This document shows, one piece after another, positions 13,627-38,910 of a stretch of DNA of 64,000 nucleotides. Under the pieces are notes generated by a model. The model saw nothing but the letters and a program-made list of their open reading frames with translations, ran no database searches and had not been told where the DNA came from. The DNA is from an uncultured Bacilli bacterium (GTDB lineage: Bacteria > Bacillota_I > Bacilli_A > RF39 > UBA660). Location of the stretch: the NCBI GenBank assembly GCA_947629235.1, contig CANRCX010000001.1, forward strand, positions 46,374 through 110,373, read 5' to 3'. The stretch's first letter is position 1, and every line of letters begins with the position of its first letter. Made by a program: the position numbers and the translations under genes.

Positions 13627-16600
13627 GTGAATAAAAATTTAGAAAATATCTTTTCTTATATTGCTGATGTATTAAAAGTTAATGATAGAAGTATTTATGA
13701 TTATAAAAACTATGACGTTTTAATAGAATTAAATGATTTTATAGAGAAATATAAAGATTTTTCAAACGATATAGATGTAGATTCTATAAATATATTAAAA
13801 GATTCAAATATTTTGACATTAAAATATAAAAAAGAAGAAAACTATTTAAAAAAATATCCTATTATAAATGAAAAACTTAAAAATTATATTTCATTAGACA
13901 ATCACAATGAAATTGTAATTAGTGAAGAAAGTTATGCTTTATTAAAAGAAAATAATTTATTAGCTGAATATAACAATTATTTATTAGAATATAATAATGT
14001 AAAAAAGAATAATGATTATATAAATAATTATAATAAAATATATAAAGAATTATACAATTTAAATAAAAGAATAAAAGATAATGAAGAGAAAATTGAAATA
14101 ATATTAGCAACAAATTTATTATATTGGAAAAATGATACAGGAGATATAATAAAAAGACATATTTTAGAATGTAATTTAGACTTAGAAGTGGATTCAATTC
14201 GTGATGTTATAACTCTTAGTATAAGTAATGATAAATTTAAAGGTTTTGTAAGTGATTTTTTAAATGAAAAAAATTATTCAGTTAAATCTAAAAGTGAATT
14301 AGATGATTTAATTAATGAGCAAAATTCATTAATTAAATCTGGAGATATTAGTATTGATAAATTAAATGATAAAATTAGTGAATATATTAACTACATTTCT
14401 TACAATCATTCTATTAAAGATACATATTTTAATGAAAAAGAAATAGAAAATAATATAACATATTTATTTAAAGATAAAACAATATTTTTTAGAAAGAAAA
14501 CATTAAGATTATGGATTGATGATGCACTTGCAATAGCAAATTATTGTAAAGAGAATGAAGTTGATAGCAATATTTTAAAAATGCTTGATATAGATTTTTC
14601 AAATGAAGAAGAAGTAAGAGATGCATTATATGATAGAAGCAATGATATAAATGAAGAAGTATTATTTCCTTTAAGTTCTAATGCAGAACAATATGACATA
14701 GTAGAAAAAATAAATAGAAATAATATTGTTTTAGTTCAAGGCCCACCTGGCACTGGTAAATCTCATACAATAGCAAATTTATTATCACACTATATAGCAC
14801 AAGGTAAAAAAGTAATAGTTACTAGTGAAAAGTCTAAGGCATTAGAAGTATTAAGAGATAAAATTCCAATCTCAATTAGAAGCCTTAGTTTATCTTTATT
14901 GTCAACAAAAGGTATAGATAAAGATTTAGAATTCTCTATAAATAATATTTTAAGTAAACAAAGAGATGAAAAAACTTTAAAAAATAATCTTATAAATATA
15001 AAATTATTAGAAAAAGAGTTAGAAAAAATAAAAGAATGTAAAGGACAAAATCAAAAAGATATAATTGAAATTATGTCTAAAGATGCGATTGATTATAAAG
15101 ATAAATTAATTGGACTTATTGATATTAAATCAGATAGTAAATTTAATTTACAAAATATTGCAAAGTATTTAGAAGATAATAAAAAATATAAATTTATTAA
15201 AGAGAACGATATTGAAAATTATGATTATAAAAATATAGATGAAATGCTTGAAAATCTTGATGATATTAGAGATGAAATAAGAAACAATAATTATGCATTA
15301 TCAACTGAAATTCCAATTAATAACTTACTTCAAGATAATCAAATAGAACTAAGTATTAAAGAAGGGATTAGATATGAAGATTATACTATAAAAAATGAAT
15401 CATTAAAGAGTTCTATTATAGAATCAAAGCTTAATAGTGAAATAATAAATGAACTTACAAATAAAATAAATAATTTAAATAATTTATATGAATTTTTTCC
15501 TAAAAAATGGTTAATTGATAAATTAGATTGGAAAGTATTTTTTGATAATATAGAAAAATTAAAAAAAGAAATTATATCAAAAGAAAAATTAATATATGAT
15601 GTTGAATCAAATAGATTTGATTATAATCTTGATTATGATAGTAACAATTTAGAATATTACCATAATATTATTTTTAATATAACTTCTTTATATAATGATA
15701 AAAAAATTCTTCCTTTAATTAATAAAATAAAATTATCTAATTATTTAAATAAACTTAGTAATTTTAAATTAAACGATGATTATTTAACAAAAAATCTTTC
15801 TTTTGAAGTATTTGAAAATATAGAAAATCAATTAGAATATAAACTTTTCATAAACAATATACAAAATAAGTTAAGTAAAGTATTAGAAAAAGATATTATT
15901 AGTATATTAAATATAAATGAATTTGAATTTGGAAAATATGAAAAAAGAATTATTAATATATTAGATGAAATAATTAATTATAATAAATCTATTAAAGATA
16001 TAGATAATAATTTATCAAAAGTTATAAATACTAAATTATTTAATATATCATATATAGATTCTCTTGAAGAATTTATTTTATCTGTAATTGATGATTTGAA
16101 TTATTATATTACTATAAATTCTAATACATCTAATCAACAAGAGTTTTCAAATGAATTAAGAGATTTTTATAAAGATTATAAATTACAAAATTTAAATGAA
16201 TTAATATTATCTATAGAAAATAAGGATTTAGACGAATATAAAATTAATAAAGAAAAATTATTAAGTGAGATTAATATTATTAATAAATATAATAATATAA
16301 GAAAGAAATATTCTTTAATATTTAGTGATAAACCATTATTTATAAAAAGTTATATATATGATTATGATAATGTAGAAAAATCTTTTGTAAAGGATAATAT
16401 TAAAGAAATATTAAAATATCATTATGTAGAAAAAATTTATCTTTCATTAGAAAAGAAACAGAATGTAAAAAAATTATATGATATAAGAAATGGATTAATT
16501 CAAAAAGAAAAACAAGTCATTGAAGAATTGATTAGTGAAAAAGGATGGTACTATCAAAATAAACAAATGACTCCTTTAATTAGTTCATCACTAAGTAAAT

Positions 16601-20605: not shown

Positions 20606-20917
20606 ATGACAGATAATATGGGTATGTACCAAGGATATAGTGTTGAAGGTAGTGCAGAATTAAAAGTTACTCCAGATAAAATGACTGAAGGCTCTTCTTG
20701 TTGTATGGAAGCACCTATGATGTGCCCACCAGTTTATGAATGTCCACAAGAAAGATGTATTCATAAACAAATTATACATGAAGTACCACATGTACAACCA
20801 ATCAATACTAGAATAATTAATCATCATATATATAGACATACATATACACCTTGTTATACATGTACTGAAGAAAATGAAGTATGCAATGTTAATGTATGTG
20901 GTCCTAAATATATGTAA
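20606..20917 (+). CDS. Cys/His-rich small protein resembling inner spore coat protein CotD family
   Basis: 103 aa. Repeated H-x-x-V/I-x-P-V/I-N/H-like segments (IHKQIIHEVPHVQPINTRIINHHIYRHTY) and many Cys residues. AAAGGAG RBS. Confidence 0.4.
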   Translation: MTDNMGMYQGYSVEGSAELKVTPDKMTEGSSCCMEAPMMCPPVYECPQERCIHKQIIHEVPHVQPINTRIINHHIYRHTYTPCYTCTEENEVCNVNVCGPKYM

Positions 20918-23363: not shown

Positions 23364-23449
23364 ATTATTAATATTTGAATAGTAAATTTTGCTATTCATT
23401 TTTTGTTTTTTATGATATACTTAATTATGATAAGATAGTAGGTGGATAT

Positions 23450-23695
23450 ATGTTAAATAATAAAGTTTTAGTAAATTTATATTGTTTATCATTAGGTAAA
23501 ACTTTTGAAGTATATTTGCCTATAAATGAAAAAATAGGAAATATAACAAAAATATTAAATACAACATTATTTGATTCAATTGATTCATCTAGAAATTATA
23601 TGTTTTTGAATTCAGAAACTGGAAATATATATAAAAATAATGAATTGATAAGAGAAACAGATATAAAAAATGGAACAAAAATAATATTAATGTAA
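23450..23695 (+). CDS. esaB: Type VII secretion ubiquitin-like protein YukD/EsaB
   Basis: ~81 aa from ATG 23450 (AGGTGG RBS 6 nt upstream). Beta-grasp-like pattern ending …ETDIKNGTKIILM, as in YukD (…ITNGDRLEIM). Sits directly upstream of essC. Confidence 0.6.
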   Translation: MLNNKVLVNLYCLSLGKTFEVYLPINEKIGNITKILNTTLFDSIDSSRNYMFLNSETGNIYKNNELIRETDIKNGTKIILM

Positions 23696-23715: not shown

Positions 23716-26700
23716 ATGAATATATATCTATTTGATGAAAATTCTATTATTACATTTTGTTTACCAAGTAAAAAAATTGGTAATTTTTGGCTTACAGATA
23801 ATGAAAATAAAAATATAGTAAATATAAAAAATGAAGATAATGATTGGATTATTAGTGGAAGCGAAAATACTAAGGTTATATTAGGAAATAATGAACAAAA
23901 AGCTATTTTAAAATCTAAAAATTATTATGCAGTTGAAAAAAATGATAAGAAATATCCTATATTTGTATATGATTCAAATGACAATACATTCAATCCATAT
24001 ATTTTTCCTGAAAATAAAACAATTAAAGTTGGTAGGATAGATGAAAATGATGTAATTGTTAATATTCCATATTTCCAAAAATTACATTTTTGTTTATCTT
24101 TAGAAAAAGGATACTATAAAATTGAAAAAATGCCTGAATCAATTATGTACTTAAATGATGAAATAATAAAAAATGATATAACCTATGCTAAAACTGGTGA
24201 TGTAATAAATGTATATGGAATAAAGTTTGTTCTTGCACACAATTTAATATTTATAAATAATCCCATTGATAGAGTATGTGTAAAAGATATTTTAGAAAAA
24301 ACATCATTTTCTGTTGATGATGAAATAACTAGTGAAGAAATAATTAATGAAGATTTATATAGTGATAAAGATTATTTTTTAAGAAGCCCAAGACTTAGAA
24401 AAATAATTGAAACATTTAAGTTAAATATTGATTCTCCACCAACAAAAGAAAATATGCAACAAATTCCATTAATTATGACTTTAGCACCAATGATTACTAT
24501 GGCAGCAAGTTCAATGGTAACTCTTTCAAATGCAATACAAACTGTAACATCTGGTGAAAAAACATGGAAACAAAATGCACCAACTTTAGTAATTTGTATT
24601 TCAATGTTATTAAGTATGCTTGTATGGCCTTTTGTAACTAGAATATATGAGCAAAAACAAAAAGAAAAAAGGGAGAATGAAAGACAAGAAAAATATAAAT
24701 CATATTTATCAAATAAAAAAGATGAATTATCAGTGGAATATAATATGCAAAAAAGAATATTAGAAGAAAATTTACTTTCTACTGATATTTGTTATGATAT
24801 GATATTAAATAAAAGAAGAACACTTTGGGAAAGAAAAATAGAAGAAAGTGACTTTTTAACAGTTAGACTTGGTAAAGGTGAAATACCATTTGATGCTGAT
24901 ATATCATATAGAAGTGAAGACTTTACAATGGATGATGATAATTTAAAAAAGATGCTTGATGAATTAATAAAGTCATATAAAACATTAACAGATGTTCCAA
25001 TAGGATACTCTTTTTCTTCTAATAAATATACAGCTGTGAGTGGACTTAATCCTAAATATGTATATTTTGTAAATAATTTATTATTACAGATGATGGCATT
25101 TCATAGCTATGATAATTTAAAATTTGTAATATTTACAAATAAAAAAAATCAAAAAAGATGGAAACATTTTAAAGACTCTCCATATTGTTTTTCTGATGAT
25201 AAATATTATAGATTTTTTGCTACTAATACAGAAGAAATGCAAGAAGTATCAAATTATTTGAAACAAATATTCAATAATAGACAAACTTTATCAAATAATG
25301 GTAGTGAAAATGAAAGAATAAATAATTTTTCTAAATTTAATACATATTATTTATTTATTATTGATGATATAGATTTAGCTAGAAAAATAGATATTGTTGA
25401 TAGTGTTTTAGATGAAAAAAAGAATTTAGGTTTTAGCATTTTAGTTATAGAAGAAAGACTATCTAAATTACCAAGTCAAATAACTAAATTTATAAATATT
25501 GGTGATAAAACATCTGTTGTTATTAACAGTGAAAATAATGATCAAATTAGATTCAATGATGAACTTAAAAATTATAATATGGATTTAGTAACAAATACAC
25601 TTATGAATTTACCATTATATATTGATAATAATATAAAACAATTGCCTAATTCAATAACATTCTTGGAGTTATTCAGTGTAGGTCAAATTGATCAATTAAA
25701 TATTCTTAATAGATGGAAAGATAATGATCCTACTAAGTCGTTAAAAGCTGAAATAGGCGTTAATGAAAATAATGATATATTTGTGTTAGATTTACATGAA
25801 AAAGCACATGGTCCACATGGACTTATTGCTGGTATGACTGGTAGTGGTAAATCAGAGTTTATAATTACTTATATACTTTCTATGGCAATTAATTATAGTC
25901 CAGAAGAAGTCGCTTTTGTATTAATTGATTATAAGGGTGGTGGTCTTGCTGGTGCTTTTGTTAATAATGAAACAAAAGAAAAATTACCACATGTAGTAGG
26001 AACAATTACAAATTTAGATAAAGCAGAAATAAATAGAGCTCTTTCAAGTATTCAAAGTGAGCTTAGAAGAAGACAAACTAAATTTAATGAAGTAAGGGAT
26101 AAATTTGGTGAAAGTACAATTGATATATACAAATATCAAAAATTATATAGAGATGGTATGATTAAGGAAGCTATTCCACATTTAATTATAGTTTGTGATG
26201 AATTTGCAGAATTAAAAGATCAACAACCAGATTTTATGGATGATTTAATTAGTACTGCTCGTATAGGTCGTTCACTTGGAGTACACTTGATTTTAGCAAC
26301 ACAAAAGCCAAGTGGAGTAGTAGATTCACAAATATGGTCTAACTCTAAGTTTAAAGTTTGTTTAAAAGTTCAAGATAAATCAGATAGTATGGAAATGATA
26401 AAGTGTGATTTGGCAGCCGAACTTAAAAATGTTGGTAGATTTTATTTACAAGTAGGATATAATGAATATTTTGCAATGGGTCAAGCTGCTTGGGCTGGAG
26501 CACAATATTATCCAAATAAGGAGTATAAAAAACCAGTCGATAAAAATATGTATTTTATAAATAATACAGGTGCTATAAAAAAAGCATTAAATAATAATTT
26601 TGCTAAAAAATTAGTAAAGTCAGAAGGAGAAGAACTTACATCTATTGTAAAATATGTAATAGATATAAGTAAAAATATTGATATAGATGTAAAACAATTA

Positions 26701-28305
26701 TGGTTAGATAGAATACCAAATAAAATATTGATTCAAGATTTATTTAACAAATATAATTATGCTAAAGAAAGATTTAATATAAATCCAATAATAGGTGAAT
26801 ATGATGATCCAGAGAATCAATTACAAGGATTACTAACTCTTCCTATAACAAGCGATGGTAATACTGTTTTATATGGAATTGCTGATAGTGGAAAAGATGA
26901 ATTTTTGTCTACTTTGGTTTATTCTATAATAATGACTTATGATACAAGTGAAGTTAATTTATATTTATTAGACTTTGGTGCTGAAACATTGATTAATTAT
27001 AGTGAAGCACCACAAGTTGGTGATGTAATATTAAATGGTAATGATGAAAAATTAGAAAATTTAGCTAAAATGTTAAATAATGAAATGAATAAAAGAAAAA
27101 AATTATTTATTTCATATAATGGAAATTATAGAGATTATATTAAAAATAGTGGGAAGACACTGCCTAATATCATTGTAATAATAAATTCTATTGAAGTACT
27201 TACTGATACTTATCAAGATTATATAGATAAATTAATACCTGTAGTAAGAGAAGGAAGTAAATACGGAATTAACTTTGTAGTAACAACAAGTAGTCAAAAT
27301 AATATTAAGTTTAAAATAGCACAAGCTTGTAAACAAATTTTAACTCTTCAATTAAACAATGAAAGTGACTATAGAGATTTGTTAGGAAAAACAAATGGGC
27401 TTATACCATCTTCATGTTTAGGAAGAGGACTTGTCAAATTAGATAGAGTATTAGAATTTCAAACAGCTTTTATAACTAATGATGAAAGTTCATTTGTTAA
27501 AATAAAAGAATTAATAAGTTTACTTAATGAAAAAGGTATTAATAAAGCAAGAGAAATACCAGTTATGCCAGATATTATTAAATTAGATAGATTTAAAGAT
27601 AAATATTTAGGTATAGATACAATACCAATTGGATTAACTAAAGAAACATTAGTATCAAGTTTATATGATTATTCTAAAAATGTTGTTAATATTATTTCTT
27701 CTAATGAAATGGAAAGTATGAGAGAATTTATATTAAATTATTTAAAACTTATTGAACAAAATAGTAATAAGTTTAATAGAGTAGTAATAGATGCATGTAA
27801 TTATTTTGAAAACTTTAATTATAATATAAATTTAATAAATGATAAATTTGATTCTGCAATTGATTCATTAAAGAAAATTGATGATAGTTTCCAACAAATA
27901 ATTGAGAAAAACAATATGAATTTAAGAAGTGTTAAAAATCAAATGAATAGTTTAATAATTATAATTGGATTTGATAAATTCTTAACTAGATTAGATGATG
28001 CTCATAAAGAAATGTTTAAAAATATTTTGAAAAATCAAAAAGAAATTTTAAAATTATCATTTGTATTAATTGATATACCATCTGCATTTAAAAAATATGA
28101 ATATGAAGAATGGTATAAAGATAGCATTACTGGAAACGATGGATTATGGATTGGAAATAATATTTCACAACAATTTGTTATCAAAACAACAATTCAACCA
28201 AATAGTATTAATAATATTGGAAATGGTTATGCAGTTTCAGTTAAAAATGGTATGCCAATTGTTATAAAATTAATAAATGAAATAAAAGTCAAAAAAAGAG
28301 AATAA
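23716..28305 (+). CDS. essC: Type VII secretion system ATPase EssC/YukB (FtsK/SpoIIIE family)
   Basis: 1529 aa. N-terminal FHA-like region. Two TM helices (~aa 250-300). First ATPase domain with HGPHGLIAGMTGSGKSE Walker A and LIIVCDEFAEL Walker B. Two further degenerate P-loop domains (GIADSGKDEF…). Confidence 0.85.
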   Translation: MNIYLFDENSIITFCLPSKKIGNFWLTDNENKNIVNIKNEDNDWIISGSENTKVILGNNEQKAILKSKNYYAVEKNDKKYPIFVYDSNDNTFNPYIFPENKTIKVGRIDENDVIVNIPYFQKLHFCLSLEKGYYKIEKMPESIMYLNDEIIKNDITYAKTGDVINVYGIKFVLAHNLIFINNPIDRVCVKDILEKTSFSVDDEITSEEIINEDLYSDKDYFLRSPRLRKIIETFKLNIDSPPTKENMQQIPLIMTLAPMITMAASSMVTLSNAIQTVTSGEKTWKQNAPTLVICISMLLSMLVWPFVTRIYEQKQKEKRENERQEKYKSYLSNKKDELSVEYNMQKRILEENLLSTDICYDMILNKRRTLWERKIEESDFLTVRLGKGEIPFDADISYRSEDFTMDDDNLKKMLDELIKSYKTLTDVPIGYSFSSNKYTAVSGLNPKYVYFVNNLLLQMMAFHSYDNLKFVIFTNKKNQKRWKHFKDSPYCFSDDKYYRFFATNTEEMQEVSNYLKQIFNNRQTLSNNGSENERINNFSKFNTYYLFIIDDIDLARKIDIVDSVLDEKKNLGFSILVIEERLSKLPSQITKFINIGDKTSVVINSENNDQIRFNDELKNYNMDLVTNTLMNLPLYIDNNIKQLPNSITFLELFSVGQIDQLNILNRWKDNDPTKSLKAEIGVNENNDIFVLDLHEKAHGPHGLIAGMTGSGKSEFIITYILSMAINYSPEEVAFVLIDYKGGGLAGAFVNNETKEKLPHVVGTITNLDKAEINRALSSIQSELRRRQTKFNEVRDKFGESTIDIYKYQKLYRDGMIKEAIPHLIIVCDEFAELKDQQPDFMDDLISTARIGRSLGVHLILATQKPSGVVDSQIWSNSKFKVCLKVQDKSDSMEMIKCDLAAELKNVGRFYLQVGYNEYFAMGQAAWAGAQYYPNKEYKKPVDKNMYFINNTGAIKKALNNNFAKKLVKSEGEELTSIVKYVIDISKNIDIDVKQLWLDRIPNKILIQDLFNKYNYAKERFNINPIIGEYDDPENQLQGLLTLPITSDGNTVLYGIADSGKDEFLSTLVYSIIMTYDTSEVNLYLLDFGAETLINYSEAPQVGDVILNGNDEKLENLAKMLNNEMNKRKKLFISYNGNYRDYIKNSGKTLPNIIVIINSIEVLTDTYQDYIDKLIPVVREGSKYGINFVVTTSSQNNIKFKIAQACKQILTLQLNNESDYRDLLGKTNGLIPSSCLGRGLVKLDRVLEFQTAFITNDESSFVKIKELISLLNEKGINKAREIPVMPDIIKLDRFKDKYLGIDTIPIGLTKETLVSSLYDYSKNVVNIISSNEMESMREFILNYLKLIEQNSNKFNRVVIDACNYFENFNYNINLINDKFDSAIDSLKKIDDSFQQIIEKNNMNLRSVKNQMNSLIIIIGFDKFLTRLDDAHKEMFKNILKNQKEILKLSFVLIDIPSAFKKYEYEEWYKDSITGNDGLWIGNNISQQFVIKTTIQPNSINNIGNGYAVSVKNGMPIVIKLINEIKVKKRE

Positions 28306-28425: not shown

Positions 28426-29043
28426 ATGAATCATAAAGTAAATAATGTACAAAATTTATTTGATGATGCTCGAACTTTGTATATGTCTGTAGTTACAGGT
28501 GGGGCTCCTTATTCTGCTGATACAATAATTACTAATTTATCAACTGGAATTGATATATTAAAAAATTGTTGGTTTGGTAAAGATGCTGGAGTTCAAATTC
28601 AAAATTTAGTAGTTGTTCATAATGCAATGGTTGCAGTAAGAAATTCTTTAGGATTTTTAGCTGAAACTACTACTAAAATTGCATCTAATTATAGAGAAAT
28701 ACAAAATTCTAATGGTGCAGGTCTTGAAACATTAGTTCCAGTTACAAATGAAAATAGAACAATTCTTGGTAGCTATAGTGATATGAGAGATACTATTAAC
28801 ATTTCTCCAGAAGCAAATAATGGAAATCAAAAAGTTGTAGCTGCAAATGGTGAAATTGATAATTTCATTAGTAATGTAAGAAAATATTTTGACCAAATTA
28901 TGAATAATTGGACAGCTGGACCTGGAAGAGAAGAATTTCAAAATGAATTTAATACTTTTGTAAGTAGTGCAAATAAATACAAATCAGTATTAAATGAAGC
29001 ATCACAAAGTATAGCAACTGCTATAAAAAATTATGGAATGTAA
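28426..29043 (+). CDS. WXG-motif helical protein; candidate T7SS substrate or toxin chaperone (WXG100/Lap-like)
   Basis: 205 aa, helical. W-x-G motif in KNCWFGKDAG near residue 50. Located immediately 3' of essC and 5' of the giant toxin. Strong AGGAGG RBS. Confidence 0.4.
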   Translation: MNHKVNNVQNLFDDARTLYMSVVTGGAPYSADTIITNLSTGIDILKNCWFGKDAGVQIQNLVVVHNAMVAVRNSLGFLAETTTKIASNYREIQNSNGAGLETLVPVTNENRTILGSYSDMRDTINISPEANNGNQKVVAANGEIDNFISNVRKYFDQIMNNWTAGPGREEFQNEFNTFVSSANKYKSVLNEASQSIATAIKNYGM

Positions 29044-29124: not shown

Positions 29125-29568
29125 ATGGCATCTTCATCATATTGGGCAGGAAGACTAAATGAAGCAAAAGCATTAAAGGCAAAAGCAGAAGAAAGATTAA
29201 AAAAATTAGAAGAACTAAAAGGAAAAATAGATCCAATTCCAGAAGCATTAGAATCAGTAATTGATACTTTTCAAAAAATAGGATTTAGTTTATCTGCAGT
29301 TTGTCCAGCTGGTTATCCAATAGATAATGGAAGTTATAATAAAAATGCAGATGATTTGCAGACTGCAGAAAGTGATTATCTTTCATTAATAAGTGAATGT
29401 GCCAATCAAATAGAGGCTGAGAGACTCGATATTAGAGATTTTGATAATTCGATTACATACTATCAAAATCAATATGATATAGCTGTTGAAGCAGAAAGAC
29501 AGGCATATTTAGCATCATTACAAAATGCGAATAATAGTAAAAAGAATAATACTAGTACAAAAAAATGA
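29125..29568 (+). CDS. Small helical hypothetical protein (possible toxin-associated accessory)
   Basis: 147 aa, predicted coiled-coil/helical. AGGAG RBS. Sits between the WXG protein and the toxin gene. Confidence 0.45.
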   Translation: MASSSYWAGRLNEAKALKAKAEERLKKLEELKGKIDPIPEALESVIDTFQKIGFSLSAVCPAGYPIDNGSYNKNADDLQTAESDYLSLISECANQIEAERLDIRDFDNSITYYQNQYDIAVEAERQAYLASLQNANNSKKNNTSTKK

Positions 29569-29589
29569 AAAAAATAAATAGGAGTTAAT

Positions 29590-32500
29590 ATGAGATGCAT
29601 AAATTGTGGAAAAGAAATAGATGTTAGTTATGGAATGGTAATGTGTCCATATTGTGGAAGAATATTGGATGATAAAATAGATAAAACAGATTATGAAAAT
29701 GCATATAATGAATTTTCAAACGAAAGAGAAGAATTAAAAAAAAACAATAAAGATAATGATAAGCCAATAACAAATGAATTTAATAAAATGGATGATAATA
29801 CCAAACTAAAAAAAGCTATTGTAGGTGGACTAGCAACTACTGCTTTTGCAGCAAGTGCTGGAAGTCTTTATGCTGCAAATAAAAATATTAACAAAAGTAA
29901 TAAAGAAAACAAAAATAAAACTTTTCCAGATGATAATATTAACAATGTTGTTATAAATGATAACGATGAAATAGAAGAAAATGCAGACAATATATTAGAT
30001 GATGATTTATTTGATTCTAACGATGTGACTAATGAAGAAGACAATATAATAGTTGATAATAATGAAAATTTAGATACAAATAATAGTAGCCAAGCAGCTA
30101 AAGATAATGGTATAGATTATAACCCAAATGCAACTCCTTCTAAACCAAAAAAAAGTACTTCAAAAAAAGTAACATCCAAATCAAATAATAACAAAAATTC
30201 AACTACTACTTCAAAAGATGAAAATAGTAATGATAATAATTTAAATAATGAAGATCAAATAATAACAGATGAAAATATATCAGAAAACGAACAAGATTCA
30301 TCATCAGAAGAAACAGAAGATGATATATTTAAAAATCCAAATGAAGATGATGATACATCAAATAACGAACCTGATATAGATTCTGATAAATCAGATGAGA
30401 ATATTACTGATAATGAAGAATCTAATATCGATACATCAGAAGAAGGATTTGAAAATTTATCTCCATATCCAGCAACTACAATATCAAATAATACTAATTA
30501 TACAAATGATTCGTCATATAATAGTTCATCATTTTCGGTAGATTATTTTCATCTAGAAAATGCTATATCTTTAATAAATAATGCAAATGATTCTTTTAGT
30601 AATATAGTATCATTAACTTCTGATATAAATACTGACGGATTAAATTTACAAACATCTGTAGCCTCAGCTAATGCTACTATAGAAAAATGTTTTGGAAATG
30701 CATCTGGAAGTAAAGTTGGAGTTTCTGCTGGTACGGCATCTCAATTAAACAAATTAAGATCAGATTTACAAAAAATGGATCCAGATTATGATTTTAATTA
30801 TGATTATTATAAATATATGAATTTAGGTTATTTATCAGAGCAAGAAGGATGGAATTCTGATGAATTTAAAAAACAAGAAAGTAGTTTAGAATCAAGTTTA
30901 AGAAGTGAAATAGGAGAAAGAAAAAAAGAGTATGAAGGAAATACTAAAAAGATAGAATTTTTAGACCAAGTTATTGAATCAATAGATATTCAAAATGAGG
31001 CATTCGAAAATTATTATAAAAATTTAGTTGATATTGAAACATTTACTGCTGTAAATCAGTACGTATCTGATAGAATGAATGATTCTACTATACCTGCTAA
31101 TTCTACATATGAAAAATATATTGATGAAAAAGTACAAGAATTAAAAGATTTGAATGCAGAAAATGAAAAAAAATATAATGAATTAGAGAAGGCTAAGCAA
31201 AAAAATAAAAATGATATAAATACTAAAAATGGAACAGAAAATACTTCTTCTGAAGAAGAACTTACTGTTTCAAAATACTCTGATGGAACATATGCATATT
31301 TAGATGAACAAAGCTTACAATTATTACAATATTATACTAATTATAAGTATTTAAATGCATGTAATGAGAGTAATTCAATTTCATCAATCCAAAGTCAAAT
31401 ATCATCATTAGAAACTAAATTAAAAATGAATCAAGATAGTTTGAATTCTGGAATTGTTTATGAGAATGGTTATCCAACTGTTATGTCTAATGATGAAAAA
31501 ACTGAATTAGAAAATATAAATAAAAAATTAAGTCAAGAAAAAGATGATTTAAATAATAGAATTAATCAAATAAATGAATCTTTTGAAAGTATTCTTAAAG
31601 ATTATTATGATGCTAATGCTGAATCAATTTATAGAATACCAGAAATAAATAGAAAACCTGAACAAAAAGATTTCTTACTTTCAAGAGATAGTTATGTTGC
31701 AACTTTACAACAAAAAGATTTGAGAAATGAAATTCAAGAATATCAACAATATATAGAAGATATACAAGAAGAAATAGATAGTTTATCAGAAAAAGCAGCA
31801 GGAGCATATGCAACAAATGTATCTTATAATAGTTCAGAATATTCTGGAATAAATTATTATGCAAATTATAAAGCTGCTTTAAAATATGGATATGGTTTAG
31901 AGTATTTAGATGAAAAAGAACAAGCTAGATATAAATTTTTATTAGAAACTGTTTCTTCACTTGAAGAAAAAAGTGCCATTGCTTTAGATGCAAATAATAA
32001 ATTAGAAGAATTAAAACAACAATTAATAATGCAAAGAAGTGATTATAGTAAGTATTCTAATTTTAATAATATAAAAGTAGAAAATGGATTTTTTGGTGGT
32101 TTAGTTTTTAGAGATGCTACCACTAATGAAAAATTAGATTTGTCTAAAGAAGAACAAGCTGTAATTTTAGCAATGAAAGGCAGTAACTCTACAAATGGTA
32201 CAGTAAATGAATATATAAATTATTTAAAAAACGGAAGTGAAAATTTATCTTATGATGCTTTAGGTGTTATAGCATATAATATGAATAAATCAAAAGAATT
32301 TGAGGGATATGATTCTAACTTTGCTTCTAGTTTTGATTATCTTTATGATCAAGGTGCAAGAATACTTGGAAAACAAATGGCAGATGAATTTACTACTAGA
32401 TTAGATAATTGTCCTGATATATTTGATTGGGTTTTAGTTGCAGATGAGGCATTAGAAGATGGATTGACTGGTTTCTTCCGTGGATTTAAAAATATATTTT

Positions 32501-35500
32501 GTGCGGATGGAAGAGCAGATGCTAGAGATTATAAACCAATGTTTATAACAGATTATATTAATAATTCTGATCAATATTGTGGACTTTATAAAACAATTCT
32601 TACAAGTGAATATGAAATTACAAATAGTATAGGAAATATGTTACCATCTATGTTAGTTACTTTAATACCTGTTGTTGGTCCTGCTGTTGGTTTAATTTCT
32701 TTAGGTGTTTCTGCTGCAGGTAATGCTAGAGAACAAGGATTACAACAAGGCATGAGTCAAGCTTCAGCGTGGATGTATGGTGTTCTATCTGGTGCTTCTG
32801 AAGCTTTACTTGAGAAGTTCCTCGGAGGTATTCCTGGTCTTTCAGATATGTCAAATGTTGTTGGAGTTCATGGACTTGCAAGAATATTTAAGGCTGGATG
32901 TAGTGAAGCTAGAGAAGAAATGTTACAAGAATTCTTGGATCCAATATTTAAATTTGTATCAACAGGTGGAGAAATAAGAGAAAATATAAGTGTAGAAAAT
33001 ATTTTAAAAGCTGGAATTTATGCTTTTATAACTGCAGGAATTTTAAATGGTGGAAATGTAGCATTTGAAGGAGTTTCATATAGATTAACAGGAGATTATT
33101 TAGCTCTTGGTACTTTAGCATCTTTAAATACAAATAGTGATTTATCTATAAAAGAAAATATTAAAAATTTCTTAAGAGATTTAAATGAATTCCAAAATAG
33201 GGATATTAAGTCTCTTGAAGAAAGCTTAATGGAAAATGAAGAAGTAAAAGCTGCTTATGAAGCTGCTAAGGCTGGTAAAGGTGATCTTGCATTTAATGAT
33301 TTTGTATCTAGAATTGTAGTTGAACAAGTTGTTAGTGAAAATAATGCATTATCACAAGAGTTATCTGAAGAAATTAAACAAAAAACAAAAGATTTACAAG
33401 ATTTAAGAAATAAAAATATTGATGGTAGATATAATGAAGATATAAGTAAATTAGAAAGTGAAATAAATGATTTAACAGAGCAAAGAAAATCTATTTATGA
33501 TAATGATATGACAATTCAAGATTCAATAGAAAGAGCAAAAGAAAAAGCTGTTCAAAATATCGATGACTTAATAAGAAGAAATAACAAGCATTTAGCAAAA
33601 GATTTATCAGAAGTATCAGCTGAAAATCTAATAGAATATTTAAATAATACAGAAATAACAGCAGAAAAAATAAAAGTGTTATTTGATAATATTAGTGAAG
33701 AAAAAATAAATAAGATATTAGAAGAAAAACCAGAATTAAAAGCATTATTAGAAGAAAATAGTACTGAAAGTACTGATGCAAGTGTAATAAATCATGAGTT
33801 GATAGATAAATTTAAAGCAACTAAAAATTATGCAGAAAAAATAGAATTAATAGAACAAATGAGTTCAGAAGAAATAGTACAATTATTAAAAGAAGACTCA
33901 CAAGCAAAATTAGTACTAGGAAAAATAAAAGATAATGCGAAATTAGCAGATGTAATAAACAAATCAAATTCAGAAGTACTAAATTCAATTTTTGGTCCAC
34001 CATTAAATGAATATTCTGATACAACAACACAATTAAAGGAAACATTAAAAGCAAAATTAAAAGGCCAAGCATTATTTGAAGGAACTATAAATAAATTAAG
34101 AGAATTAGGAATAGAAATAGAAGAAAGTGAAGAACAAATAGAAACTTCAGATGATACAACGGCTGAACCAACTTCTGAAATAGTAGATCATCATGATGCA
34201 ACAACTGAAGAAAGTGAGTCAAAAACTCTACCAAAAAGTGATAATAGTACTGAAAGTACTGATGCAAGCGTAATAAGTCATGAATTGATAGATAAATTTA
34301 AAGCAACTAAAAATTATGCAGAAAAAATAGAATTAATAGAACAAATGAGTTCAGAAGAAATAGTACAATTATTAAAAGAAGACTCACAAGCAAAATTAGT
34401 ACTAGGAAAAATAAAAGATAATGCGAAATTAGCAGATGTAATAAACAAATCAAATTCAGAAGTACTAAATTCAATTTTTGGTACACAATTAAATGAATAT
34501 TCTGATACAACAACACAATTAAAGGAAACATTAAAAGAAAAATTAAAAGGTCAAACATTATTTGAAGGAACTATAAATAAATTAAGAGAATTAGGAATAG
34601 AGATTGAAGAAAGTGAAAAAACAAGTCATGAATTGATAGATAAATTTAAAGCAACTAAAAATTATGCAGAAAAAATAGAATTAATAGAACAAATGAGTTC
34701 AGAAGAAATAGTACAATTATTAAAAGAAGACTCACAAGCAAAATTAGTACTAGGAAAAATAAAAGATAATGCAAAATTAGCAGATGTAATAAACAAATCA
34801 AATTCAGAAGTATTAAATTCAATTTTTGCTACACAATTAAATGAACATTCTGATGCAACAACACAATTAAAGGAAACATTAAAAGCAAAATTAAAAGGTC
34901 AAACATTATTTGAAGGAACTATAAATAAATTAAGAGAATTAGGAATAGAAATAGAAGAAAGTGAAAAACAAGTAGAAATTGCACATGATATAACAACAGA
35001 ACAAACATCTGAAATAGTAGATCATCAAGATACAACAACTGATAAAGCAGCAGAAGAAACAGATCATCAAGATACAACAACTGATAAAGCAGCAGAAGAA
35101 ACAGATCATCAAGATGCAACAATTAAACCAACACCAGAAGAAACAGATCATCAAGATGCAACAATTGAACCAACACCAGATGAAGCAGGTCAACAAGATG
35201 CAACAATTGAACCAACACCAGATGAAGCAGAACAACATGATACAATAATTGAACCAACAATAGAAGATGCAGGTCAACATGATGCATTAACAGATGCAAC
35301 AGCAAAAGTAGATGAGGCACATGATGTAGTAACAGATGCAGCAGAACAAGTAAAAGAAGCAGAGAATTTAGTGGATTCTTCATCTGAAAATAATCAAGCA
35401 TCTGTTCCACCAGTTCCACCAATAGTAGATATTGACTCAAATGCAAATCAATCACCTATAAAGATGGAAATATCTGAATTTTTAGCAAAATATAAAGGCT

Positions 35501-37206
35501 TTAAAAATATATATGAATTTAAACAAAAATTTTCATCATTGTTAAGTCAATGGGAAAGTTCTTTAACGGCTAGAGAAATAAGTTTAATTGAGAATTATAC
35601 AGGTAATAATGAAATGGAATTTGGAAATTATGCAACTGTAAATAGCATATTGAGAGGAATCTTTTTCAATTCACAAGATGGTAAAATTCACATTAAAAGA
35701 ATTGGTGGAGATGAAGATTCATATACTTTTTCAGAATTTGCTTATATGGTAAGGAGTAAATACTCTTCTGCAGCAAATCTTAGTGATGCAGATGCAATAA
35801 AGTTTTTTGTGAGAGGCCAAATACAAGCTATAAATGATTTATCTAATGCAATAAGTAAATTTGAACTTCCAGAAGATATATTATTGGAAAGACGCATTGG
35901 TGGTAGTTCATTAGTTAAACTCTTTAATATTGATATAAATAATGATTCTGTTGAGGATGTTGTAAGAAAAATAAATGATGGTGGTTATTTTAGAGATAAT
36001 GGTTTTATGAGTACTTCAGCCGGTAAATCTCCAGGATATGGAAATGTTGTACTAAAGCTTGGATGTAAAGCTGGTATGTCTGCAGTTGATATCACAGGAA
36101 ATAGTAAATATTCAGTTGGAGAAAATGAAGTCCTTGTAAACATTGGTACAACATTTAGAGCGGTAAATGCAGAAAGAGTAAATGGAAGATTAGTTATTTA
36201 TTTAGAAAGTATTCCAGCTAATAATATTCAAGTTGATAGTATGGATAGCTTAAAAACATTTATTTCTGATAATATAAATGCTTCACCAAATTCAATAGCT
36301 AAAACAATTAATAATTATTTTGAACAACAAATGAAAAATAATGCATCTAATTCATACTTAAAACAAAGCCTTTATTATGATTTATTAGAAATATCTGGTA
36401 TGCCTGGAATTGATCAAACAACTATGTCAGAAATATTATCTTCAGTAATTTCAAATAATAAAGAAATGAGATCAATAATATATGAAATGGCACAAGAAGA
36501 AATAAAGCAAAGTTTTAAAGATACATTAGATATACAAAATGATGCTGATATAAAAACATTAACAGATTTTATATTAGGAGAATCTTTTGTAGAAAATGGT
36601 GTTGGTAATCAAAATTGGGATGGATTTTTTAACTTTATATATGATAAAGTTAAAGAATCAGTTGCTAAATCTGCAAAAAATAAAGAAGCAATATTATGGA
36701 GTAAGCTTCCAACAATAGCATTAAATCAAATGTATTCTACAATTGAAAATACTACACTTGGAGATACTATGTACTTTTTAGATTTAGTTTATTCAAATTG
36801 GAATAGTCAATTTAGCACTTTACCACCATTAGAAGAATTCTGGGGTAAAATGTCTAAATTATATGCAGAAGCATGTTCTAATTTAAAAGATGAAAATGGA
36901 AATCCAATAACAAAATTAAAATATATTTATCCAGGTCAAGATGCTATAGGTGAGTTATTTAAAAAAGAAGAATTACCTACATTGTTAGAAAAAGGAGTAA
37001 TAAAAACATTGGAAGTTGTTAAAGCTAATGTAGATGAAACAAATCCAGATTTACCTAAACTAACAAATGAAAAAACAATAGAAATAGATTTAACAGAATT
37101 AAGCAATTTCTATAGAAAGAATCTTAATAAAGGTGTTTCAAAAGATATTTTAATTGAAAAAGTTTATTCAAAATTCATTGAATTATTACATAAGGGAGGT
37201 TTATAA
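29590..37206 (+). CDS. Giant modular protein with C-terminal ADP-ribosyltransferase (iota/VIP2/C2-type, R-S-ExE) toxin domain
   Basis: 2538 aa. N-terminal CxxC…CxxC zinc ribbon (CINCGK…CPYCGR) then a TM helix (KLKKAIVGGLATTAFAASAGSLYAA). A D/N/S-rich linker, then a long helical region. A hydrophobic Gly-rich segment (aa ~1000-1150). Three ~116-aa tandem repeats, then TDHQD acidic repeats and a PPVPP motif. In the C-terminus the ART motifs read LLERRIGG (Arg, nt 35888-35893), FMSTSAG (STS, nt 36004-36024) and GENEVLV (ExE, nt 36118-36138). Confidence 0.8.
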   Translation: MRCINCGKEIDVSYGMVMCPYCGRILDDKIDKTDYENAYNEFSNEREELKKNNKDNDKPITNEFNKMDDNTKLKKAIVGGLATTAFAASAGSLYAANKNINKSNKENKNKTFPDDNINNVVINDNDEIEENADNILDDDLFDSNDVTNEEDNIIVDNNENLDTNNSSQAAKDNGIDYNPNATPSKPKKSTSKKVTSKSNNNKNSTTTSKDENSNDNNLNNEDQIITDENISENEQDSSSEETEDDIFKNPNEDDDTSNNEPDIDSDKSDENITDNEESNIDTSEEGFENLSPYPATTISNNTNYTNDSSYNSSSFSVDYFHLENAISLINNANDSFSNIVSLTSDINTDGLNLQTSVASANATIEKCFGNASGSKVGVSAGTASQLNKLRSDLQKMDPDYDFNYDYYKYMNLGYLSEQEGWNSDEFKKQESSLESSLRSEIGERKKEYEGNTKKIEFLDQVIESIDIQNEAFENYYKNLVDIETFTAVNQYVSDRMNDSTIPANSTYEKYIDEKVQELKDLNAENEKKYNELEKAKQKNKNDINTKNGTENTSSEEELTVSKYSDGTYAYLDEQSLQLLQYYTNYKYLNACNESNSISSIQSQISSLETKLKMNQDSLNSGIVYENGYPTVMSNDEKTELENINKKLSQEKDDLNNRINQINESFESILKDYYDANAESIYRIPEINRKPEQKDFLLSRDSYVATLQQKDLRNEIQEYQQYIEDIQEEIDSLSEKAAGAYATNVSYNSSEYSGINYYANYKAALKYGYGLEYLDEKEQARYKFLLETVSSLEEKSAIALDANNKLEELKQQLIMQRSDYSKYSNFNNIKVENGFFGGLVFRDATTNEKLDLSKEEQAVILAMKGSNSTNGTVNEYINYLKNGSENLSYDALGVIAYNMNKSKEFEGYDSNFASSFDYLYDQGARILGKQMADEFTTRLDNCPDIFDWVLVADEALEDGLTGFFRGFKNIFCADGRADARDYKPMFITDYINNSDQYCGLYKTILTSEYEITNSIGNMLPSMLVTLIPVVGPAVGLISLGVSAAGNAREQGLQQGMSQASAWMYGVLSGASEALLEKFLGGIPGLSDMSNVVGVHGLARIFKAGCSEAREEMLQEFLDPIFKFVSTGGEIRENISVENILKAGIYAFITAGILNGGNVAFEGVSYRLTGDYLALGTLASLNTNSDLSIKENIKNFLRDLNEFQNRDIKSLEESLMENEEVKAAYEAAKAGKGDLAFNDFVSRIVVEQVVSENNALSQELSEEIKQKTKDLQDLRNKNIDGRYNEDISKLESEINDLTEQRKSIYDNDMTIQDSIERAKEKAVQNIDDLIRRNNKHLAKDLSEVSAENLIEYLNNTEITAEKIKVLFDNISEEKINKILEEKPELKALLEENSTESTDASVINHELIDKFKATKNYAEKIELIEQMSSEEIVQLLKEDSQAKLVLGKIKDNAKLADVINKSNSEVLNSIFGPPLNEYSDTTTQLKETLKAKLKGQALFEGTINKLRELGIEIEESEEQIETSDDTTAEPTSEIVDHHDATTEESESKTLPKSDNSTESTDASVISHELIDKFKATKNYAEKIELIEQMSSEEIVQLLKEDSQAKLVLGKIKDNAKLADVINKSNSEVLNSIFGTQLNEYSDTTTQLKETLKEKLKGQTLFEGTINKLRELGIEIEESEKTSHELIDKFKATKNYAEKIELIEQMSSEEIVQLLKEDSQAKLVLGKIKDNAKLADVINKSNSEVLNSIFATQLNEHSDATTQLKETLKAKLKGQTLFEGTINKLRELGIEIEESEKQVEIAHDITTEQTSEIVDHQDTTTDKAAEETDHQDTTTDKAAEETDHQDATIKPTPEETDHQDATIEPTPDEAGQQDATIEPTPDEAEQHDTIIEPTIEDAGQHDALTDATAKVDEAHDVVTDAAEQVKEAENLVDSSSENNQASVPPVPPIVDIDSNANQSPIKMEISEFLAKYKGFKNIYEFKQKFSSLLSQWESSLTAREISLIENYTGNNEMEFGNYATVNSILRGIFFNSQDGKIHIKRIGGDEDSYTFSEFAYMVRSKYSSAANLSDADAIKFFVRGQIQAINDLSNAISKFELPEDILLERRIGGSSLVKLFNIDINNDSVEDVVRKINDGGYFRDNGFMSTSAGKSPGYGNVVLKLGCKAGMSAVDITGNSKYSVGENEVLVNIGTTFRAVNAERVNGRLVIYLESIPANNIQVDSMDSLKTFISDNINASPNSIAKTINNYFEQQMKNNASNSYLKQSLYYDLLEISGMPGIDQTTMSEILSSVISNNKEMRSIIYEMAQEEIKQSFKDTLDIQNDADIKTLTDFILGESFVENGVGNQNWDGFFNFIYDKVKESVAKSAKNKEAILWSKLPTIALNQMYSTIENTTLGDTMYFLDLVYSNWNSQFSTLPPLEEFWGKMSKLYAEACSNLKDENGNPITKLKYIYPGQDAIGELFKKEELPTLLEKGVIKTLEVVKANVDETNPDLPKLTNEKTIEIDLTELSNFYRKNLNKGVSKDILIEKVYSKFIELLHKGGL
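33760..34966 (+). repeat. Three near-identical in-frame tandem repeats (~348-nt core; ~116 aa) inside the toxin gene
   Basis: Units begin ~33760, ~34246 and ~34621 and each ends in GAAGAAAGTGAA. Their protein sequence (SHELIDKFKATKNYAEKIELIEQMSSEEIVQLLKEDSQAKLVLGKIKDNAKLADVINKSNSEVLNSIF…KGQTLFEGTINKLRELGIEIEESE) is nearly identical at nt level. Confidence 0.9.
35020..35290 (+). repeat. Short degenerate acidic tandem repeats (DHQDTTTDKAAEET / DHQDATIEPTPDEA)
   Basis: A 42-nt unit gatcatcaagatacaacaactgataaagcagcagaagaaaca is repeated exactly twice, followed by 3-4 diverged copies. Confidence 0.8.
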
Positions 37207-37207
37207 T

Positions 37208-37711
37208 ATGAATGCATTAACACAAATTAACACAGATTTATATGATAAGAGATTAGATATAAAATTCAATCCAGATTTATTAAATGAACTTGATTATGAT
37301 AGTAGGCATAAAGTGGAAAAAACTTTATTATCTTATTGTAAGCAAGGAATTGAAACATCATTTAAATATCTACAATATTTTAATACAATTAGTGAAGAAG
37401 ATATGATAACAGAAGAAGATATTTCAAAACTTTCATTACCATATCAGGTGGAAATTTATAGATTCTTATTTTTAAAAAGTAAAAATTTGGATATATTAAA
37501 TAAATTAATTAATTTATCTATGAATTCTTATAACGCTTTTTACCAGTTGTTAATGATATATAATTCTGATATAATAACTGATGAAGAAAAGGAAAAAATA
37601 AAATTAGCAATAGATAAGTCATTTGAAAATAATAAAACAGATATAAATTATAAATTTTTGATTGATAATTATATAGATGGTTATGATAATGATGATATAA
37701 AATTGTTATAA
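37208..37711 (+). CDS. Small helical protein immediately 3' of ART toxin; candidate immunity protein
   Basis: ~167 aa from ATG 37208 (GGGAGG RBS 9 nt upstream). The ORF-track start at 37154 overlaps the toxin 3' end and lacks an RBS. No recognisable family. Position is typical of a cognate immunity gene. Confidence 0.5.
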   Translation: MNALTQINTDLYDKRLDIKFNPDLLNELDYDSRHKVEKTLLSYCKQGIETSFKYLQYFNTISEEDMITEEDISKLSLPYQVEIYRFLFLKSKNLDILNKLINLSMNSYNAFYQLLMIYNSDIITDEEKEKIKLAIDKSFENNKTDINYKFLIDNYIDGYDNDDIKLL

Positions 37712-37730
37712 TATTAGGAGGATTTTAAAT

Positions 37731-37946
37731 ATGGAAAATAAGTATAGTAAATTTAAAAGTGATGAAGAAAATGAATTTACTACTGGTAATAAACGTGGTA
37801 GTTTAACACAAGAACAAATAAGAGAAGAATTGGAACAAAAATTACAGTCACAATTAAAAATGATTGATGACTGGGTTGCATCATCTTCAAGTCAAGAAGC
37901 AGATGAAGAACAAGAGCAAGAAAGAGAAGAAGGACTGCATAGATAA
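37731..37946 (+). CDS. Small acidic hypothetical protein
   Basis: 71 aa. Strong AGGAGG RBS. C-terminus is highly acidic (EADEEQEQEREE). The stop abuts the start of the ADP-ribosylglycohydrolase gene. Confidence 0.35.
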   Translation: MENKYSKFKSDEENEFTTGNKRGSLTQEQIREELEQKLQSQLKMIDDWVASSSSQEADEEQEQEREEGLHR

Positions 37947-37947
37947 T

Positions 37948-38910
37948 ATGAATAATATTATAAAAAATGGTTTATATGGTTTTGCTATTGGTGATGCAAT
38001 GGGTGTACCAATTGAATTCACACCTAGAGTTAGCGATGAATCAAAAAAATTAAAAGAAATGGTAGGATATGGATCACATCATGTTCCAGAGGGAACTTGG
38101 TCAGATGATACTTCAATGACAATTGCTACTATGGATTCTATACAAGAATGTAAAGGAATTGATTATTATGATATAATGGATAAATTTACAAATTGGTATA
38201 ATAATGCATTGTATACTGCAACTGATAGAGTCTTTGATATTGGAAATACTACACGTTTGGCAATAGATAAATATAGTAGATTATCAATGAATCCACTTCA
38301 ATGTGGTGGAAAAAATGAAAGAGACAATGGTAATGGTTCACTAATGAGAATGCTTCCTATTGCAATATATTTATTTTATAATAATTTAAGTGAACAAGAA
38401 GAAATGGAAATAGTAAAAAACATTTCTTCTCTAACTCATGCCCATGATATTAGTATATTAGGATGTAAAATATATGTAGATTTTATTAAAGAAATTCTTT
38501 CTGGAAAATCAAAAGAAGATGCATATAATAGTTTATCCAAAAATAATTATAATGTTTATTTTGATAATAATACAATTGAAAAATATGATTCTATATTAAA
38601 TGGTAATTTGAAAAATAAATCAATAGATGAAATAAGATCATCTGGTTATGTAGTTAATACACTAGAAGCATGTTTGTGGTGTACGTTAAATACAAAAAAT
38701 TATGAAGAGAGTATAATAGAAGCAATTAATTTAGGAAAAGATACTGATACAGTAGGTGCAATTACAGGATCTTTAACTGGATTAATATATGGATATGATA
38801 ATATACCACAAAGATGGCTATCAAAATTAAGAAAAAAAGAATATTTAGATGAACTAATTGATAAGTTTAATAATTATTTAAATAATGAAAATGTTAAAGT
38901 TAGAGGATAA
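37948..38910 (+). CDS. ADP-ribosylglycohydrolase (DraG/ARH family)
   Basis: ~320 aa from ATG 37948. N-terminal GLYGFAIGDAMGVPIEF matches the ARH family metal-binding region. C-terminal …KDTDTVGAITGSLTGLIYG is the conserved second Asp cluster. The ORF-track start at 37864 is an in-frame 5' extension. Confidence 0.8.
   Translation: MNNIIKNGLYGFAIGDAMGVPIEFTPRVSDESKKLKEMVGYGSHHVPEGTWSDDTSMTIATMDSIQECKGIDYYDIMDKFTNWYNNALYTATDRVFDIGNTTRLAIDKYSRLSMNPLQCGGKNERDNGNGSLMRMLPIAIYLFYNNLSEQEEMEIVKNISSLTHAHDISILGCKIYVDFIKEILSGKSKEDAYNSLSKNNYNVYFDNNTIEKYDSILNGNLKNKSIDEIRSSGYVVNTLEACLWCTLNTKNYEESIIEAINLGKDTDTVGAITGSLTGLIYGYDNIPQRWLSKLRKKEYLDELIDKFNNYLNNENVKVRG

Follow-up and report, generated by a model that had tools for sequence, protein, structure and literature searches.

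A zinc ribbon and a small-residue helix as the head of a giant toxin at a type VII secretion locus of uncultured gut Bacilli

Type VII secretion system (T7SS) substrates have so far been described as carrying a helical targeting domain either at the far N-terminal end or, for two families, at the C-terminal one (retrieved parts of PMC10730906 and PMC13560087). In the type VIIb system (T7SSb), the LXG toxins with Lap and WXG100-like partners (TelA-C, YxiD, EsxX) are encoded beside essC, with WXG100-related and small helical partner genes upstream and an immunity gene downstream, and they combine a long helical front region with a variable C-terminal toxin (retrieved parts of PMC9600955 and PMC11217815). 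The reverse-oriented substrates TslA and TslM carry the targeting domain at the C-terminus and the toxin in the N-terminal part (as given in the same parts of PMC10730906 and PMC13560087). Here, we describe a toxin gene from an uncultured Bacilli bacterium, located in a stretch of 64,000 nucleotides (contig CANRCX010000001.1, positions 46,374 to 110,373; hereafter the window, to which all coordinates refer unless a relative is named). The open reading frame (ORF) encodes 2538 amino acids (aa) on the + strand (29590–37206). It shares with the LXG toxins the arrangement of genes and the order of helical region, variable toxin and downstream immunity gene. Unlike them, it has no Pfam LXG match, its helical region starts only at aa 313 behind an additional head, and its 2538 aa include a conserved central hydrophobic domain absent from Pfam. 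As in TslA and TslM, the targeting domain would not lie at the extreme N-terminus; unlike in these proteins, an internal stretch is the candidate targeting region, the toxin comes at the C-terminus, and a zinc ribbon and a helix form the N-terminus.

The head can also be compared with proteins of other kinds. The generic zinc-ribbon plus transmembrane (TM) anchors of Bacillota (zinc_ribbon_2 and Zn_ribbon_3) have the same layout, namely M-x-C-x-x-C ... C-P-x-C-G, a short spacer, a lysine cluster and an uncharged helix. An unrelated 267-aa protein of this kind, encoded at one of the relatives' loci (L039, 9706–10509), combines a CxxC-x12-CxxC ribbon at its N-terminus with a KKEKKK cluster and a strongly hydrophobic TM helix, whose Kyte–Doolittle (KD) value is 2.88. 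These bacteria are thereby seen to possess the generic ribbon-anchor architecture. The toxin helix is different in being Ala/Gly-rich, with KD values of 1.28–2.01 among orthologues, and in being followed by a T7SS-type toxin body. In RsgI anti-sigma factors, too, a cytoplasmic domain at the N-terminus is combined with one helix and a long C-terminal portion. The first-pass annotation of this DNA had likened the N-terminus to RsgI-type or zinc-ribbon membrane anchors. The second likeness stands; the first was rejected, as aa 1–110 gave no RsgI_N or anti-sigma Pfam match at E ≤ 1 and no sigma-factor family was found in the neighbouring ORFs scanned. In the type VI secretion system (T6SS), prePAAR effectors have one or more TM helices at the N-terminus, in front of the domain that couples the large toxin to secretion. 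The secretion system is unrelated, no Eag-type chaperone was identified here, and the parallel is no more than an analogy. No zinc-ribbon-plus-TM trafficking module is described in the polymorphic-toxin survey PMC3482391, and a ribbon-plus-helix head is undescribed in the retrieved parts of the T7SS literature (PMC11217815, PMC10730906, PMC13560087).

Ribbon, helix and linker of the toxin head

The N-terminal ribbon and helix are supported as translated parts of the protein. A strong Shine-Dalgarno sequence, AGGAG (29580–29584, + strand, visible in the sequence itself), precedes the ATG at 29590 by 5 nt, and no methionine is found between the helix and the helical region: the next one after M67 is M396, and the conserved helical region already begins at aa 313. 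A start at an internal methionine downstream of the helix, which had been considered as a refutation of the N-terminal anatomy, is contradicted by these features and by the conservation described below. For the comparisons, a search with the EssC protein of the locus provided seven loci, from metagenome-assembled genomes of uncultured gut and rumen "Bacilli bacterium" and from Clostridium sp. CAG:524, and a search with the 205-aa WXG100-like protein encoded upstream of the toxin provided 55 metagenome loci. EssC is 81% identical between the window and locus L003, 57% for L008 and 53% for L007.

The four-cysteine zinc ribbon announced by the first-pass annotation is present (aa 3–23, CxxCG-x11-CPxCG; 29596–29658, + strand). 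Residues 3–22 read C-INC-GKEIDVSYGMVM-C-PYC, i.e., CxxC-x12-CxxC, and hold 4 of the 12 cysteines of the toxin. When 12 cysteines were placed randomly over 2538 positions, a CxxC-x(4-25)-CxxC pattern arose in 6 of 300,000 placements (about 2e-5). Scanned alone, aa 1–110 scored just below the gathering threshold (GA) with both Zn_ribbon_3 (22.9 bits, GA 27) and DUF7575 (26.8 bits, GA 28.5), which is usual for such short motifs; against PHROGs, the ribbon gave weak matches only, to phrogs of unknown function. M1, C3, C6, G7, C19, P20, C22 and G23 are invariant among the window toxin and its orthologues in L003, L007 and L008. The substrate of L010 likewise carries the ribbon.

The helix (aa 76–96; 29815–29877, + strand) is a stretch of 21 uncharged residues rich in Gly, Ala, Ser and Thr, AIVGGLATTAFAASAGSLYAA, flanked by KLKK and NKNINK, and may be a weak TM or a packing helix. 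It begins 53 residues past the last ribbon cysteine and about 75 residues from the protein start, compared with aa 29–52 in the orthologues. Outside it, 56% of aa 1–312 are D, E, K, R, N, Q or H, so that a 21-mer free of these residues would be expected by chance at about 1e-5. Over 19 residues, its KD value is 1.28 (1.28–2.01 over the orthologues, with 2.01 in L010), and 71% of its residues are small. The i/i+4 faces G4-T8-A12-G16-A20 and G5-T9-A13-S17-A21 consist of small residues throughout, and the L007 helix has GxxxGxxxG. The DNA encoding the helix has 46% GC inside a gene of 26.7% GC (24.6% in the window). Because A+G make up 47% of the helix, the local GC content is 46% and the i/i+4 faces contain Gly, Ala, Ser and Thr only, selection is for small residues and not for bulk hydrophobicity. 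Thus, the hydrophobic helix with flanking lysines that had been noted exists and is conserved, although it is shorter than the 23 residues claimed and weakly hydrophobic. It was also correctly denied the status of a cleaved signal peptide. By reading of the sequence, a cleaved Sec signal peptide was rejected, since its n-region would comprise 28–75 aa with a folded ribbon inside, and neither an AxA c-region nor a lipobox is seen.

The helix is followed by a low-complexity, acidic and disordered linker (aa 97–312; 29878–30525, + strand) of about 215 residues rich in N, D, S and E, with a net charge of -40 over aa 100–312. Counterpart linkers are present in L003, L007, L008 and L010; in L007 (8553–9334), the linker past the ribbon and helix consists of many perfect GDESTG repeats. 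The helical region (aa 313–900; 30526–32289, + strand) then begins with SFSVDYFHLENAISL, which aligns to the extreme N-terminus of most family members, so that window residue 313 onward corresponds to residue ~1 of ordinary relatives. The linker of L010 ends again at SVNISFYQLENALSIL, the counterpart of aa 313. Furthermore, the central domain begins at residue 200–600 in 133 of 161 intact members and at aa 907 in the window toxin. Because aa 313 aligns to residue ~1 of the relatives and the central domain starts late, aa 1–312 can be regarded as an added head. Judged from these alignments, the ribbon, helix and linker together are an optional, lineage-specific head placed before the helical region.

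By position and context, aa 313–900 is a candidate targeting region and not an LXG domain. Pfam LXG (PF04740) gave no match to aa 301–620 at E ≤ 1, and no WXG100 match was obtained in the helical region of the window. Among 25 family N-termini, one weak LXG match (E 9e-4) and one weak WXG100 match were obtained, and the L003 counterpart of the helical region matched WXG100 weakly (20.4 bits). Consequently, the first-pass claim that an LXG domain is lacking is right as far as Pfam is concerned, but the helical region behind the linker is what forms the N-terminus of most relatives. A single-sequence AlphaFold2 (AF2) model of aa 305–620 was all-helical at low confidence (pLDDT 43.9). A local jackhmmer search with aa 305–520 returned the query itself only, and a word-indexed homologue search with aa 1–560 returned no matches, low-complexity words swamping the search.

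The T7SSb locus and the distribution of the head

By its gene content and order, the locus is a bona fide T7SSb locus with the toxin gene in the position of the substrate, which suggests EssC-dependent export. The locus begins with a small ORF (23375–23695, + strand; 81–106 aa over the loci), which is directly 5' of essC in 7/7 genome loci and has no Pfam or NCBIfam match; its position alone suggests an EsaB/YukD-like role. EssC, the FtsK/SpoIIIE-type ATPase of 1529 aa (23716–28305, + strand), matches TIGR03928 (T7_EssCb_Firm) with 988.1 bits against an equivalog cutoff of 778.4, and PF01580 with 2.2e-44. It is followed by a tandem WXG100-like protein of 205 aa (28426–29043, + strand; PF06013 WXG100 29.6 bits, GA 27.3, aa 136–203) and by a helical partner of 147 aa in a Lap/YwqH-like position (29125–29568, + strand). 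Next come the toxin gene and a Tri1-like ADP-ribosylhydrolase. The order from essC to the toxin gene is kept in 7/7 genome loci, as it is in the majority of those among the 55 metagenome loci that reach far enough. A promoter and terminator scan, which is of little information in DNA of 25% GC, gave no terminator-like site between the genes of the locus. The T7SSb context with its EssC, WXG100 protein and helical partner is in conflict with the first-pass statement that the N-terminus is not that of a T7SS substrate.

In the 205-aa protein, W49-x-G51 and W162..G165 are invariant in six orthologues. The protein looks like two fused WXG100 hairpins and may take the place of the usual EsxA homodimer; its presence beside essC is conserved in >60 loci. 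The 147-aa partner had no family match, and its L005 counterpart was weakly YwqH-like (19.7 bits, below GA), though a small helical ORF holds this position across the loci. The partners of L007 (8090–8494, MPCSC ... CNTCW) and L008 (15362–15784, MTCIH ... CASC) have Cys motifs at both ends, which hint at a metal site that the partner in the window lacks. No family match to EssA, EssB/YukC or EsaA/YueB was found in the ORFs scanned from 13010 to 43462; the conserved core, which in the window and L003–L009 appears to comprise only the small ORF, EssC, the tandem WXG protein and the partner, may represent a minimal T7SSb variant, unless the remaining genes are located elsewhere in the genome.

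The head is one of several that occur in front of the helical region. Thirty-four distinct substrate-position N-termini were compared, and the ribbon together with the uncharged helix was found at the same position in five of them (window, L003 (10394), L007 (8553), L008 (15812) and L010 (7174)). Four more have the ribbon without the uncharged helix, directly before the helical region, and three of these four have an insert of 41–45 aa between the knuckles. The helix without the ribbon is seen in P0026. A head scored as "NDSF" was called in 7/34, among which L020 looks like a false call, and the remaining N-termini are of other types or directly helical. The "NDSF" head (LL-NDSF ... GIVK ... 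KAK-EGYDF) takes the place of the ribbon-helix head, spans about 220–270 aa and has no Pfam match; its carriers are L004 (7037), L005 (16099), L026, L031, L040, L041 and L049, as well as P0028 and P0037. A third, repeat-type head is seen in L059, P0014, P0017 and P0019. The L006 substrate begins directly with the helical region, and its gene is adjoined by one for DUF4176, a family of LXG-toxin accessory proteins (retrieved part of PMC12482557). A stand-alone ribbon-plus-TM gene, as might be expected where the substrate lacks the head (a Rosetta-stone test), was sought and not found within the flanks of L004–L006. The elements of the head thus exist, are conserved and modular, and stand in a T7SS context, and the composition of the helix is atypical. 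Zinc binding, membrane insertion, an orientation with the N-terminus inside the cell (N-in), tethering and the export route are properties that we infer for this head.

Anchor, cargo or signal

The favoured reading, to which we assign a probability of about 40%, is that of a cytoplasmic ribbon, a small-residue helix packed into the membrane, and an acidic linker by which a toxin exported by the T7SS is tethered. The ribbon would fold and remain on the cytoplasmic side. The small-xxx-small helix would be kept in the membrane by packing against its own copies or the TM helices of EssC, and not as an autonomous lipid anchor, and the acidic linker would act as a flexible tether. EssC would export the helical region, with the help of the WXG100-like and 147-aa partners, together with the central domain and the ADP-ribosyltransferase (ART) toxin. 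The exported toxin would stay attached, or be held at the envelope of the producer until release, and the Tri1-like hydrolase would protect the producer. The order of ribbon, about 50 aa, lysine cluster and helix in the 267-aa protein of L039 supports an anchor. In addition, a MurT/GatD-like pair of lipid II amidation enzymes is encoded in the window (49369–51442, - strand). The presence of MurT and GatD indicates that the organism makes peptidoglycan, and therefore a long linker is plausible as a wall-spanning tether.

A number of observations speak against this picture. As a TM segment, the helix is borderline by every scale considered. Its summed Hessa value is +4.2 and its Wimley-White octanol value is +2.4, and both are positive in all orthologues (Hessa central-position and octanol values of the published scales). 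The genome's own TM helices (EssC, VanZ, PssA-like, P-type ATPase) have KD values of 1.7–2.96, mostly an I/L/F/V/M content of at least 0.5, and A+G of at most 0.32, compared with 0.26 and 0.47, respectively, in the toxin helix. The flanking charges give no clear preference for an N-in orientation: K+R on the N- and C-flanks number 4/5 in the window, where they are lysines, 5/4 in L003, 2/2 in L007 and 3/1 in L008. The confident N-in topology and the single TM segment of the first-pass annotation are therefore not retained, the latter because the central domain holds further hydrophobic segments, a stronger one at aa 1017–1046 (KD 2.16) and another at aa 1133–1159 (KD 1.27). From the ribbon-only relatives (L032, L043/44, L051, P0016, P0043), the ribbon is seen to have a role that does not depend on an anchor. 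A T7SS substrate with a membrane-retained cytoplasmic N-terminus was not found in the T7SS literature searched, and the AF2 models of the helical region and of the central domain are too low in confidence to help.

Nearly as likely is that the head is exported along with the toxin, with no anchor in the membrane of the producer, and that the ribbon serves the T7SS machinery, or a partner protein, as a handle for docking or regulation. The Gly/Ala-zipper helix would then be shielded in the producer and act later, for example by inserting into a target membrane, oligomerising or binding a chaperone. Such a view agrees with the helix being too weakly hydrophobic for an autonomous anchor, unlike the TM helices of the genome, and with the four distinct relatives that keep the ribbon without it. 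The "NDSF" and repeat-type heads at the same position suggest that the system tolerates N-terminal cargo, and the reverse-oriented substrates mean that a targeting domain need not be N-terminal (retrieved parts of PMC10730906 and PMC13560087). The T7SS toxin EsxX has glycine-zipper membrane-active modules (retrieved part of PMC12744356), and TelE is a pore-forming T7SS toxin, whose abstract (10.64898/2026.03.12.711312) makes no mention of a glycine zipper. Since these organisms live in the anaerobic gut, an extracellular Cys4 site may be possible. On the other hand, the layout of ribbon, lysine cluster, uncharged helix and long linker matches generic N-in anchors such as that of L039, no obvious role would be left for the 215-aa acidic linker, and no gene for a dedicated chaperone varies together with the type of head, with homologous small partners in loci that have the head and in loci that lack it.

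Insertion by the signal recognition particle (SRP) and Sec as a type II signal anchor, with the 2400-aa remainder outside the cell independently of the T7SS, is improbable. The resemblance of the ribbon-plus-helix layout to generic N-in anchors, the strongly acidic downstream region and the lack of a Pfam LXG match would fit this route, but the gene is embedded in an operon-like T7SSb array with WXG100-like and helical partner genes directly upstream. Moreover, there are relatives with the same body that lack any N-terminal hydrophobic segment and therefore must use another route. By hydrophobicity, the Ala/Gly-rich helix is a poor SRP/Sec signal; translocation of an unfolded chain by Sec would bypass the cytoplasmic partner proteins, and the hydrophobic segments at aa 1017–1159 would act as stop-transfer sequences. 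It is very hard to believe that the head is an artefact, with the true start downstream or the helix as the h-region of a cleaved signal peptide. An A-S-A tripeptide (aa 88–90) does occur inside the helix, but the strong Shine-Dalgarno sequence, ribbon residues invariant over four loci, the gap from M67 to M396 that spans the start of the helical region at aa 313, and the unsuitable n-region with no c-region or lipobox all stand against it. 

A broader proposal can be built on the packed-helix reading, namely, a third class of T7SS substrates with an internal targeting region behind a cytoplasmic ribbon and a membrane-embedded small-residue helix. At present, this proposal is tentative and doubtful.

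The toxin body, neighbouring genes and significance

The conserved central hydrophobic domain (aa ~900–1200; 32290–33189, + strand) is marked by YEIS-SIGNM-PS ... SAAGNA-E-GLQ-GMS ... LGGIPGLS ... SEG-EE-LQ ... KSGIYG-ITAG. An exhaustive HMMER search with aa 1–1200 yielded 703 cluster representatives (50% identity) at E ≤ 1e-3, and all of the best 150 of these 703 matches place their best stretch on a region ending at aa ~1105–1200. A word-indexed search with the domain gave one match with the domain alone and seven with a profile. The domain matched nothing in Pfam, PHROGs or the PDB, and the helical and C-terminal parts of the toxin likewise had no PHROG match. When the PDB was searched by sequence with aa 301–900, the 205-aa protein, the 147-aa protein and a profile of the central domain, nothing significant was obtained, the best match being Tse5 (E 0.076). 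The AF2 model of the domain, from an eight-sequence alignment, had a pLDDT of 35.7. The central domain was also found in proteins bearing a zincin-like HELTH motif (P0154).

Farther downstream, the toxin gene contains tandem repeats (34275–35308, + strand), a 348-bp unit in two copies of 97% identity and a 42-bp unit in about 6.5 copies. A third, more diverged copy of the 348-bp repeat is visible upstream at the protein level, and the 42-bp units encode TDHQDATIEPTPEEA-like repeats. The ART domain named in the first-pass annotation is well supported (aa ~2078–2196; 35821–36177, + strand; PF03496 ADPrib_exo_Tox, 57 bits against a GA of 23.4), and motifs of the C3-like R-S-E class, STS (FMSTSAG) and ExE (GENEVLV), are visible in it. 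The C-terminal ~300 aa past this domain (aa 2234–2515) match an internal region of the giant protein of L005. Between the window and L003, the giants are only 33% identical over aa 1–1547, whereas their EssC proteins are 81% identical; divergence of the toxin alongside a similar EssC is typical of polymorphic toxins.

The gene of the ADP-ribosylglycohydrolase (37864–38910, + strand; PF03747, 5.1e-74) is likely to encode the immunity protein. The T6SS pair Tre1-Tri1 offers a parallel, with an ART toxin and a downstream gene of the ADP-ribosylhydrolase (ARH) family, and the best NCBIfam match of the protein is the ADP-ribosylarginine hydrolase Tri1. The differences are that Tre1-Tri1 belongs to another secretion system, that the match is under the Tri1 cutoff (213.8 vs 490 bits), and that a 185-aa ORF of no family lies between the two genes here. 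This ORF is one of two without family matches (185 and 71 aa) between the toxin and the hydrolase (37154–37946). The flanking genes of the locus are housekeeping genes: dnaK, dnaJ, rplJL, rpoBC, ffh, RNase J, iscS, thiI and leuS. Between rpoC and ffh lies a gene for a 1609-aa superfamily 1 helicase with a C-terminal MTES_1575/DUF559 nuclease domain (13627–18456), which is likely a defence gene; the anti-phage protein ProA is the NCBIfam entry that the helicase matches best (233 bits, far under the cutoff). A conserved Cys/His-rich ORF of 103–105 aa (MTDNMGMYQGYSVEG ... CPPVYECPQERCIHKQ ...) with no significant family match is present at 20606–20917 and in L003 (1357–1674).

A conserved head before the targeting region would show that such a region can be internal. 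It also raises the question of whether T7SSb can leave part of a substrate in the membrane or cytoplasm and thereby produce a tethered toxin. If the proposal of a third class is true, EssC would move a chain outward as a loop or hairpin and release the helix laterally, so that the N-terminus would always remain inside the cell. Gut Bacilli in which no EssA, EssB or EsaA genes are seen near essC would then possess an ADP-ribosylating toxin that is tethered at the surface and depends on contact. Should the head turn out to be mere cargo exported with the toxin, the result would come down to another variable module of a polymorphic toxin. The locus also brings to light two unannotated features of uncultured gut and rumen Bacilli, namely a central-domain family of ~700 representatives and a tandem-WXG100 protein.

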